Shown: positions 25,612 through 51,014 of the stretch, one piece after another
Numbering within the stretch: position 1 is the stretch's first letter
Layout of the letters: each line of letters opens with the position of its first letter
Source of the DNA: a virus
IMG/VR virus record: IMGVR_UViG_3300017769_000001
Coordinates: 32,001 to 96,000 of that record
DNA: 64,000 bases
Reading direction: 5' to 3' (one strand)
Program-made: the position numbers and the translations under genes
The notes under the pieces: generated by a model
Told to the model about the DNA's origin: nothing
Databases searched by the model: none
Seen by the model: the letters and a program-made list of their open reading frames with translations, nothing else

Positions 25612-25626
25612 CAATGTTAAAGAACG
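25612..25626 (-). promoter_or_regulatory. boxA antitermination element
   Basis: CGTTCTTTAACA versus rrn boxA TGCTCTTTAACA. Confidence 0.75.
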
Positions 25627-48751: not shown

Positions 48752-49027
48752 TCACACACTACGCATGATTACAAGATTGATTACGACACAATCGCCCGCC
48801 ATGCCGTCGACGTCGTTTGTGTGACAGAATTCTGATTCCGCGCCCTCGCTGACAGACCAGTGATAGTGTGTACCTCCAAAGGCGTCTCTAAGACTTTCGG
48901 CGCGTTCTTCCAATGCGTCGACCGATTCAATTTCATCGTCGGTCATACCTGTTTCGTCTCCGTTTACGATACTGCAAAGAGCATACGAAGGCACAGTAAA
49001 CTCGATATTTTCCAGTACTTCTGTCAT
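48752..49027 (-). CDS. Acidic early protein, first gene of the early operon
   Basis: VP.YAL..IVNGD.TG..D.E motif; GGAAAGGGGAAAAGTT-ATG. Confidence 0.75.
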   Translation of the reverse strand: MTEVLENIEFTVPSYALCSIVNGDETGMTDDEIESVDALEERAESLRDAFGGTHYHWSVSEGAESEFCHTNDVDGMAGDCVVINLVIMRSV

Positions 49028-49049
49028 AACTTTTCCCCTTTCCAACATT

Positions 49050-49655
49050 GACAGCACACTTCGGAGAGCTGCCGCCTAACATAAGCGGCAACCCGAAATC
49101 AACTGTTTTGGCTAACTTGCTCGTTAACAGCTTGCCACACTGACACTATTTCCCGCCTATGAGATACACCAGACTGCCAGCGGGAATAGCCGATATAGTG
49201 ACAGTCTGGCTGAATTCCGCGTTTCAGCCTTCAGCGGATAGTCTCGAACCGGTTTTGTGTGTTAGGTCATTTACAAGGACACACGAACCCCTTGAACGTA
49301 AATTTACAGTTTGGGTGCATTGAAATCATACACTTACACTGAAGGCTGTTACCGCCTGAGAGTGACATTCTCCGGTTAAGAGACTATCCGCCAGCATGTA
49401 AGATCGACACCTTTTCAGGCGCAACTGTGCCACGCTAACACATTTGCCTTTACTCCGTTCCAGTTTGTTACCGGTGGCCGCAACTATAACAGAGCCAGAA
49501 TCATTAGGTTACTAAAAGCGCCAAAAACTCACTTTCACTTTCGCCGACATTCATGGCCTAGCAAGTACTAGCCGCACGTTCTGAGTGCGATACAGTCCTA
49601 GACGTAACTCCCCTTCGGGAATGGGATTCCACCGTAGTGATACCCGTTGTCTCCA
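49050..49655 (-). ncRNA. ~600-nt structured leader / ncRNA
   Basis: No ORF; long-range stems and two possible pseudoknots; follows promoter and boxA. Confidence 0.6.
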
Positions 49656-50133
49656 AATTTTTAAAGAACGTTGGCGTTTCAGCCTGTGAACCATTATACA
49701 GCGTTGGTTCCCGTTGTCAAGTTTCGTTTTAAAGTTTTTTCGGTTTCCCGAAAAATCGAATCTTGATTTTGCCGTTTCAGTCTATCAGACTTGATCTGTC
49801 GTCGTCAATGCTTTTTTTGCCTTTTTGCGCGGTCTGTCGTTTGGATAACATGCCGAAACAGTACCCTATCCTAACCTGCCACCTGATAACTATTATGTAT
49901 TGTCAGGTAGTGCAAAACGACTGGCATTGATAATTTAAGCCTAGTCTAATCGAATGATCTGGCTATGTCAAGATCAAAACGAAACTCAATTTTTAAAGAA
50001 CGGTGCCGTATTGGCATGGCTTCACTTTACTGAAAGCCGTTTCCCTTGTCAAGCGATTTTTTGCTTAACTCCGCTGGCGTTGTTTGCCGCGTTTCCATGG
50101 TTCCCATGATACGGATTTCAAAACGAAAGTCAA
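49656..50133 (-). promoter_or_regulatory. Five tandem sigma70 early promoters with two identical boxA-like 15-mers
   Basis: TTGACA-16-TATAAT (49720), TTGACG-18-TAGACT (49808), TTGACA-17-TAGACT (49971), TTGACA-17-TAAAGT (50052), TTGACT-16-TATCAT (50133); CGTTCTTTAAAAATT at 49656-49670 and 49988-50002. Confidence 0.8.
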
Positions 50134-50134
50134 A

Positions 50135-50490
50135 ATTTTTATTTCCCTTTCAAATCAACAACTTACAACGATACGTCACGTAACTTATTGATTTTCTTAG
50201 AAAAAATAATTTTAAAATTTTGCGTTTTTTCTGTCCGGGGTTCTTGCTTCATTTATATGCAAATCGTGGGCGCGATTTTCTCAAAATTTTGTTTGGTGGT
50301 CAAATTAATTTTAGTTAATTTTTGTTAAGTCTTTGTTTTTATTAGGGATTTTCTTTTTCCTGTGGGTTATCCACTGGGGTAAATCTTGGTGTGTGGATAA
50401 GTGTGTAACTGTGGAAACCCTGTGTATAAGTGTGTTTTCGCGGGGGTTTCACACTACACTTCACACTACACTTCACACCACACTTCACAC
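50135..50490. other. oriC-like locus: IHF sites, AT-rich tract, DnaA boxes, 12-bp direct repeats
   Basis: WATCAANNNNTTR at 50153-50165 (+) and 50181-50193 (-); TTATCCACT 50367, TGTGGATAA 50392, TGTGGAAAC 50410, TGTGTATAA 50421. Confidence 0.65.
50448..50490. repeat. 3.6 x 12-bp tandem repeat TTCACACYACAC
   Basis: Direct reading. Confidence 0.9.
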
Positions 50491-50615
50491 GAGAAGATTC
50501 CTCGAATAATCGGCGCTTCGCGCCGACCTCAAATCGTTGCACAGATGTCCTTCATGTGTCAGCAAAATGACGCTTCCTACTAAATAAAGGGTATCAAACT
50601 AATACAAATTTTGCT

Positions 50616-51014
50616 ATGACTGATACGATAAAAGACGAATCACTCAAAGAGCGACTGATCATGGTGGAGCAACAACAAAGCCACCAGAAAGAAGTACTAC
50701 TTGAGATCAACGATACTCTCAGAGAAGTCGTCAAGACTCAGCACGTCTTGGCGAACCAGAGGAAAGATATTGACAGGTTGACGAAAGAGAACGAAGTCAT
50801 TCTCAAAAAGTTTCATGCTGCGGATATCGAGAATGCTGCTAGGAGTTCTCGTGATGAGTATACAACAAAGCTTGTGGAGTCTCTCAATAAAAAGGTAACT
50901 AACGATATCGAACCCCAGCAACAAAAAGTAAAGACTTACTTGAAGATTGCTGGAGTCGTATCTGGTGCTGGCTGGGCTCTTTTCTTGGCTACTTTGAAGT
51001 ATTGGGTTGGTTAG
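50616..51014 (+). CDS. Late coiled-coil protein with C-terminal TM helix (holin / XhlA-like)
   Basis: TAAATA promoter at ~50581; heptad pattern; IAGVVSGAGWALFLATL. Confidence 0.55.
   Translation: MTDTIKDESLKERLIMVEQQQSHQKEVLLEINDTLREVVKTQHVLANQRKDIDRLTKENEVILKKFHAADIENAARSSRDEYTTKLVESLNKKVTNDIEPQQQKVKTYLKIAGVVSGAGWALFLATLKYWVG

Follow-up and report, generated by a model that had tools for sequence, protein, structure and literature searches.

A predicted folded RNA leader behind boxA at the head of a putative early operon in a marine T4-like phage

Introduction

Antitermination mediated by boxA is textbook knowledge for rRNA operons and for the phages lambda and T7. The leader of the E. coli rrn operons carries a boxB hairpin, boxA and boxC and works with the NusA/B/E/G-SuhB-S4 antitermination complex. 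The nut elements of lambda place boxA before boxB and need the phage N protein, and the put RNAs of phage HK022 are short, two-hairpin elements of about 70 nt that need no boxA. In T7, boxA has been proven genetically behind the early promoters A1-A3 (Savalia et al. 2010, cited in PMC3709561).

In the current study we analyzed a stretch of 64,000 nucleotides (hereafter the window), which corresponds to bases 32001-96000 of a complete 148.7-kb marine phage genome with direct terminal repeats and contains a predicted folded leader RNA behind tandem promoters and boxA. The locus resembles T7 in belonging to a lytic phage with boxA behind tandem host-polymerase early promoters, where host factors would antiterminate early transcription. 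However, its leader has no sequence relation to T7, for which we know of no conserved folded body of ~600 nt between boxA and the first gene. The likeness to the E. coli rRNA operon leader extends to the tandem strong sigma70 promoters (rrn P1/P2), the small hairpin and the perfect boxA behind it, both no more than about 30 nt from the start, the long untranslated and highly structured RNA with long-range helices behind boxA and the occurrence of a further boxA inside the tRNA array of the phage, as in rrn spacers. On the other hand, the phage transcript does not yield rRNA but continues directly into putative early protein-coding genes, no boxC was recognised 3' of boxA in the phage leader, and its leader-trailer-type helix (columns 15-21 with 644-650 of the A4 alignment) has only 7 bp and is broken in one of the relatives, L015.

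Besides, HK022 put and lambda nut are comparable in that both follow early promoters of phages and act as RNA elements that let the polymerase resist termination. The leader described here differs from nut: its hairpin precedes boxA, which is the rrn order, and the phage has no evident N-like gene. The size of 600 nt or more, the multi-domain organization and the pseudoknots recall the GOLLD, ROOL and OLE RNAs, but the Rfam models of these families do not match the phage RNA, which appears to be an operon leader with boxA. We could find no printed description of a conserved RNA of such length, folded into several domains and interposed between boxA and the first early gene.

Materials and Methods

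The full-length comparison of leaders comprised five sequences, namely the window and L015, L016, L017 and L020, which are short metagenome contigs reached through variants of the DUF6926 protein cluster. Additionally, L026 was reached through a relative of gp68; it includes the promoter array and extends 350 nt into the leader. L013 and L014 are identical copies and hence uninformative. A covariance model of domain II of the leader (R1) was used for searches. The comparison of distant leader bodies covered L028 only, by R1 and local alignment.

Results

Genome context of the locus

The gene set of the phage includes a T4-type capsid protein, a portal, rIIA and 19 tRNA genes, and its host is probably a gamma-proteobacterium of marine origin. 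Its closest cultured relatives are the Alishewanella phages Slicko01 and Slickus01, whose capsid-protein identity is only 56% and which show no synteny with the window at the leader locus. The leader is located between a gp68-like head gene and a run of small leftward genes reaching rIIA, and there is no sizeable ORF from ~50600 to 49027. Considering the genomic context and the host-type promoters, these small genes behind the leader are presumably early genes. The features upstream of the leader, together with the third boxA of the genome and the first gene, are as follows:

51560-51018, minus strand: gp68-like head gene
50135-50500, upstream of the promoters: origin-like region with 12-nt repeats, DnaA-box matches and an AT-rich tract
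49779..50303, minus strand: upstream tandem sigma70-like promoters, all pointed toward the leader
49991..50001, minus strand: distal boxA copy, GTTCTTTAAAA, behind the promoter at 50052-50024 and with a small hairpin 5' of it
49693..49720, minus strand: proximal early promoter, TTGACA-16-TATAAT
49659..49669, minus strand: proximal boxA copy, GTTCTTTAAAA
48752..49027, minus strand: putative first early gene, 91 aa, DUF6926 (Pfam PF21977, E = 1e-9)
25615-25625, minus strand: third boxA, CGTTCTTTAACA, flanked by the genes for tRNA-Gly and tRNA-Met, which open the 19-tRNA array

The origin-like region has three 12-nt tandem repeats at 50448-50490, DnaA-box matches at 50392 (TGTGGATAA), at 50421 (TGTGTATAA) and near 50367 (TTATCCACT) and an AT-rich tract of 33% GC. 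Both the repeats and the DnaA-type boxes are kept in L026, L027 and the distant L028, and the sequence around them diverges. An ORF of 132 aa at 50616-51014 (plus strand), between gp68 and the origin-like region, had no match in Pfam or PHROG, and ORFs of 134-136 aa that match its position and orientation occur in L026, L027 and L028.

Promoters and boxA elements

The original prediction of a TTGACA-16-TATAAT promoter followed by boxA on the minus strand was borne out, the former with a 12/12 consensus match and the latter as a perfect match to the gamma-proteobacterial consensus GYTCTTTAANA (PMC5725501). The proximal promoter, with a predicted start near 49686, closes a tandem array of about 5-7 sigma70-like promoters (50303-49693, minus strand), those upstream having -35 starts at 50303, 50133, 50052, 49971 and 49808; the promoter scan gave 11 sites versus 4.4 expected. 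It is invariant except for one spacer base in L015, L016, L020 and L026. The promoters at 50133, 50052 and 49971 are also 90-100% conserved in L015/L026, but the spacers between them are not, with identities down to 42-56% in L026.

Two small repeated or palindromic elements occur among these promoters. A perfect palindromic hairpin, UUUUUCGG-GAAA-CCGAAAAA, lies at 49733-49752 (minus strand) between the 49808 and 49720 promoters, is present in L015 and L016 and is replaced in L026. The octamer CTGAAACG is found at 49677-49684 and 49773-49780 (minus strand), just past the predicted starts of the 49720 and 49808 promoters, and a third copy lies at 49219-49226 (minus strand), inside domain III of the leader.

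The proximal boxA, ~18 nt past the predicted start of the 49720 promoter, follows a small hairpin (GGC-UGAAAC-GCC, 49684-49673) and is invariant in all relatives. It lies inside the 15-mer CGTTCTTTAAAAATT, and an identical 15-mer occurs behind the 50052 promoter, where the distal boxA is ~23 nt past the -10 hexamer. The window holds three boxA matches versus 0.42 expected, and these are the only consensus matches in the whole 148.7-kb genome, all of them on the transcribed (minus) strand and each with a hairpin of 3-4 bp on its 5' side. Two copies head the leader and the third follows the first gene of the 19-tRNA array, ahead of the second. The leader and the tRNA array are the two long untranslated transcription units of the genome and thus exactly those that carry boxA, a distribution that is expected if boxA protects these units from Rho, as in rRNA operons. 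The copy in the tRNA array also resembles the spacer boxA of rRNA operons.

Predicted structure of the leader RNA

The leader and the four domains of its consensus fold are given below, all on the minus strand:

49028..49686, minus strand: untranslated folded leader RNA of about 660 nt, with no conserved ORF
49393..49645, minus strand: domain I, with UACG and GAAA tetraloop hairpins, a helix of 135-nt span and a dispensable variable hairpin
49233..49392, minus strand: domain II, with a 19-bp long-range helix around three hairpins, an invariant stretch and the GUGUGU/ACACAC pairing
49132..49232, minus strand: domain III, where the loop of the hairpin 49209-49199/49179-49169 pairs with 49156-49146 as an H-type pseudoknot
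49051..49128, minus strand: domain IV, with two near-invariant hairpins directly upstream of the ribosome-binding site

The early leader had been described as ORF-free and ~600 nt long; the first part of this claim held, with no conserved ORF before the ATG at 49027, and the length is corrected to ~660 nt. Between ~49686 and this ATG, no ORF is longer than 54 aa. A small-ORF reading of the region was rejected, because no ORF is common to the five sequences and indels of 1, 17 and 12 nt shift the frame.

Folding gives -225 kcal/mol (z = -3.9) for the sense strand versus -182 kcal/mol (z = -3.0) for the antisense strand, the former being more stable by 43 kcal/mol. The RNAalifold consensus contains 190 pairs in about 25 helices. 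G-U accounts for 15% of the pair cells (141 cells), and pairing is kept in 98% of cells in the sense orientation versus 84% in the antisense orientation. Since, owing to this use of G-U, the opposite strand would keep only 84% of the pairs, the promoter-sense RNA is the folded strand.

The helix of 135-nt span in domain I (A4 alignment columns 135-147 with 282-295) shows six wobble-compatible single changes. In this domain a 17-nt hairpin and another 12 nt are missing from L016 and L017, which indicates that this part of it is dispensable. The 19-bp long-range helix of domain II (49392-49372 with 49252-49233) has a core of perfect 12-nt arms (49391-49380 / 49245-49234) extended by AACCGG/CCGGTT; the helix of the original prediction is present at its stated positions, and covariation in four relatives supports the main helix. 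The same domain includes a stretch of about 57 nt that, with its unpaired segments, is invariant in 5/5 sequences. The second loop pairing that had been suggested, GUGUGU (49284-49279) with ACACAC (49262-49257), can form as well, and it is invariant in the five sequences, so its conservation cannot test the pairing.

An H-type pseudoknot had also been predicted and was recovered in domain III, where the loop CUAUUCCCGC pairs with GCGGGAAAUAG (49156-49146) at -18.5 kcal/mol, a value reached by 0.7% of shuffles. The duplex, of 11 bp with one bulge, is kept in 5/5 sequences with energies of -17 to -18.5 kcal/mol (shuffle p = 0.007-0.03). The four relatives have lost one U in the pseudoknot loop and, in a matched manner, one A in its partner, and a U-G of the domain III stem becomes U-A in relatives. 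The pseudoknot is only modestly supported, as a nested alternative is also available.

The second hairpin of domain IV has 18 bp and a 3-nt bulge, and it is not a terminator because no U-run follows it. No terminator-like site was found on the minus strand from 49686 to 49027, which makes the RNA as encoded a leader and not a stand-alone gene. The DUF6926 gene follows the leader in 5/5 sequences that reach its 3' end (window, L015, L016, L017 and L020), and its ribosome-binding site, GGAAAGGGGAAAAG, located just upstream of the ATG at 49027, is unpaired in the consensus fold.

Conservation and covariation

Structural conservation, the lack of which would have spoken against the original prediction, was observed among the five leaders. 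Standard pairs occupy 98.3% of the 938 pair cells, a share that falls to 33-40% if the pairing partners are shifted against each other. Six pairs changed on both sides (four in the long-range helix, one in an enclosed hairpin of domain II and one in a variable hairpin) and 21 changed on one side in a wobble-compatible manner, and these few covariation events should be read against the fact that the five full-length sequences are mutually 88-97% identical. The changes among the five leaders are concentrated in the dispensable hairpins.

The identity values themselves require some caution. L026 is 78.6% identical to the window at the DNA level in the capsid-gene region and ~70% in the helicase/gp68 region, versus 94-100% in the leader, and L015 and L020 are 97% identical in the leader versus 80% in the DUF6926 gene. 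This disagreement between the gene and leader trees indicates that the module was exchanged between phages and that raw identity overstates selection. The exchange of the promoter-leader-DUF6926 module may have been recent, inflating the apparent conservation. The leader differs by 5-12%, versus 16-45% at fourfold sites of the adjacent DUF6926 gene. Taken together, the pattern of changes shows clear selection for structure on the leader fold in this phage lineage.

Distribution of the leader and related loci

More distant phages, recognised by gp68 proteins with 43-56% identity (the value for L031 coming from a short partial match only), have ORF-free stretches of 0.8-1.0 kb at the same junction:

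L028:9838-10669: ORF-free stretch
L031:4129-5102: ORF-free stretch
L029:6384-7418: ORF-free stretch

L028, whose gp68 is 43% identical, combines origin-like repeats, a consensus promoter and an 830-nt ORF-free leader with boxA, and this leader folds unusually well (z = -4.95). In L031 boxA is present twice; one copy immediately follows a promoter, and ~325 nt then lead to the next gene. L029 has two boxA copies with one mismatch each and a hairpin 5' of one of them. Strong sigma70-type promoters occur at the junctions of L028 and L031, so that promoter, boxA and ORF-free leader are kept in these two at the matching genomic junction. The local alignment of the L028 leader body with that of the window was no better than alignments of shuffles, and the domain II model did not match it. 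The conserved and general part seems to be the promoter with boxA, the folded body being apparently lineage-specific.

Rfam 15 at the gathering threshold returned only tRNAs in the window, with RNase P, tmRNA and 6S among the families that do not match the leader. At E<=10, the region 49027-49686 had no match except for the edge of a spurious 11.6-bit sRNA match (49649-49762). The cmscan check proposed with the original prediction thus leaves the RNA undescribed, as no Rfam family matches the leader, including GOLLD, ROOL, OLE, HEARO, riboswitches, ribozymes and introns. BLAST of 48900-50700 in near and distant modes found nothing among 50,697 phage records, and exact-pattern scans with invariant 20-24-mers gave zero matches in IMG/VR, JGI metagenomes and GTDB genomes. 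Single-protein locus searches of IMG/VR (helicase, 161-aa protein, capsid protein and DUF6926 alignment) returned no relatives. Relatives of the 161-aa protein are encoded in L003 to L012, and no homologous leader was found there. R1 matched only its own locus in the phage genome and had no match in Slicko01, phiEco32, L003, L007, L008 and L026-L028. Within the range covered by these searches, homologues of the leader would be confined to a small clade represented by a handful of marine metagenome contigs.

A comparable arrangement was found in phage phiEco32, which has a gene-free region of ~2 kb flanked by genes 124 and 125. The boxA consensus is matched perfectly four times there, always on the transcribed strand, in the orientation of the neighbouring genes:

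L025:4788-6731 = NC_010324 72787-74730: phiEco32 gene-free region, four boxA matches

However, phiEco32 belongs to another phage family with another host and the domain II model matches nothing there, indicating a likeness of design and not of descent.

Candidate targets and binding sites of the leader were also considered. Antisense targets in the phage genome amounted to 11-12-nt chance matches, apart from the ribosome-binding cassette and boxA. A role as a CsrA sponge was rejected, since the 10-13 GGA motifs are not placed in loops and not all of them are conserved.

Discussion

Our reading of the locus, which we consider probable, is that the RNA is the untranslated 5' leader of the first early operon of the phage, organized in the manner of an rRNA operon and provided with boxA/Nus antitermination. 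Host sigma70 RNA polymerase would start at the tandem strong promoters right after infection, and the nascent RNA would expose the small hairpin first and then the perfect boxA. This element would recruit host NusB/NusE together with NusA, NusG and SuhB, so that the polymerase might become Rho-resistant across ~640 nt without ribosome cover and run on into the many small early genes, while the leader body would adopt a four-domain fold that includes long-range helices and one or more pseudoknots. Nus recruitment and binding, protection from Rho, early timing and the start site are all inferred from sequence features. As to the folded body, we lean toward a stable structural part of the early transcript that might be set free through cleavage at the long helices. 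A point against this reading is that boxA alone would suffice for antitermination, which leaves the 600-nt fold unexplained.

That excess of structure is what speaks for an RNA in its own right, cut out of the transcript or still attached to it, that would act in trans and represent a new class of large phage non-coding RNAs. We regard this as possible but rather doubtful. Its roles could be those of a sponge or decoy for host proteins, a titrator that keeps Nus factors off host rRNA operons, or a ROOL/GOLLD-like scaffold formed by self-assembly. The fold seems selected beyond what antitermination needs, the ~57-nt stretch is invariant in the five sequences even where unpaired, helices of 18-19 bp that could be RNase III sites flank the domains, multiple strong promoters imply a very high copy number, and large ornate RNAs are known from phage-rich contexts (PMC12286853). 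However, there is neither a terminator nor a mapped processing site before the first gene, complementarity to targets in the phage genome is not above chance, GGA motifs are not enriched in loops, the clade is very narrow and deeper relatives have different leaders. The early non-coding RNA of the original prediction thus survives as a structured RNA, by its conservation, compensatory changes, strand-specific G-U and lack of Rfam matches, but not as a stand-alone gene, as no terminator follows; the decoy role proposed in that prediction is possible but found no support here. A broader version, in which the folded body is a new large-RNA class serving as host-factor decoy or scaffold and unrelated phage families have repeatedly evolved the disguise of an rRNA operon for bulk early synthesis, is speculative and somewhat less likely still.

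The remaining explanations appear much less plausible. An RNA primer or R-loop for replication, like ColE1 RNA II or the T4 oriF/oriG transcripts, would tie the leader to the origin-like region that adjoins it (50135-50490) and is also kept in L026, L027 and L028, and the size of the leader is near that of RNA II, which is roughly 550 nt. Nevertheless, transcription is directed away from the DnaA boxes, the RNA extends past an intact ribosome-binding site into a gene that is translated, and no G-rich/C-rich hybrid-forming segment was noted in it, making this role quite unlikely. A cis-acting antiterminator like put of HK022, in which the RNA itself modifies the polymerase without Nus factors, would fit a structured element directly behind early promoters. 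Yet the perfect boxA, with two copies at the leader and one at the tRNA array, points to Nus-factor antitermination of the rrn/T7 type and not to an RNA acting on the polymerase alone, and 660 nt far exceed the ~70 nt of put; to our knowledge Rfam holds no put model. This part of the original prediction found no support, and we consider it very improbable. The ribozyme suggested along with it, self-cleaving or otherwise catalytic, could account for the complex fold, the pseudoknots and the invariant unpaired stretches, but no known ribozyme or intron class in Rfam matches the leader even at E<=10, and the sole group I match (E = 0.78, 15 bits versus a gathering threshold of 50) is found in the upstream promoter region (49737-49979), leaving catalysis with hardly any probability. 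Equally slight is the chance that the RNA has no function and is conserved through recent spread of the module between phages or through DNA-level signals. The promoter-leader-DUF6926 module is indeed far more similar between phages than core genes are, and the gene and leader trees conflict for L015/L020, but compensatory double changes, strand-specific G-U and variation placed in dispensable hairpins are unexpected without selection on RNA structure.

The folded boxA leader reported here occurs in a marine T4-like phage. If it reflects a general phage strategy, it would point to a class of RNAs made early by phages and to the Nus/boxA machinery as a commonly hijacked host system. The locus also offers a compact test case, since mutations can be introduced into boxA and into the folded body independently of each other.

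A minor observation concerns the 3' border of the leader. The ribosome-binding cassette GGAAAGGGGAAAAG(T)TATG at 49031-49044 is repeated at ~48744, 47709, 47547, 46349 and 44581, before several of the putative early genes. The ends of the contigs L018 and L019 at the ATG were considered as a possible RNA end and this was rejected, since assemblies break at the repeated cassette: L016 ends inside it, and L018 and L019 begin 2 nt before the ATG.
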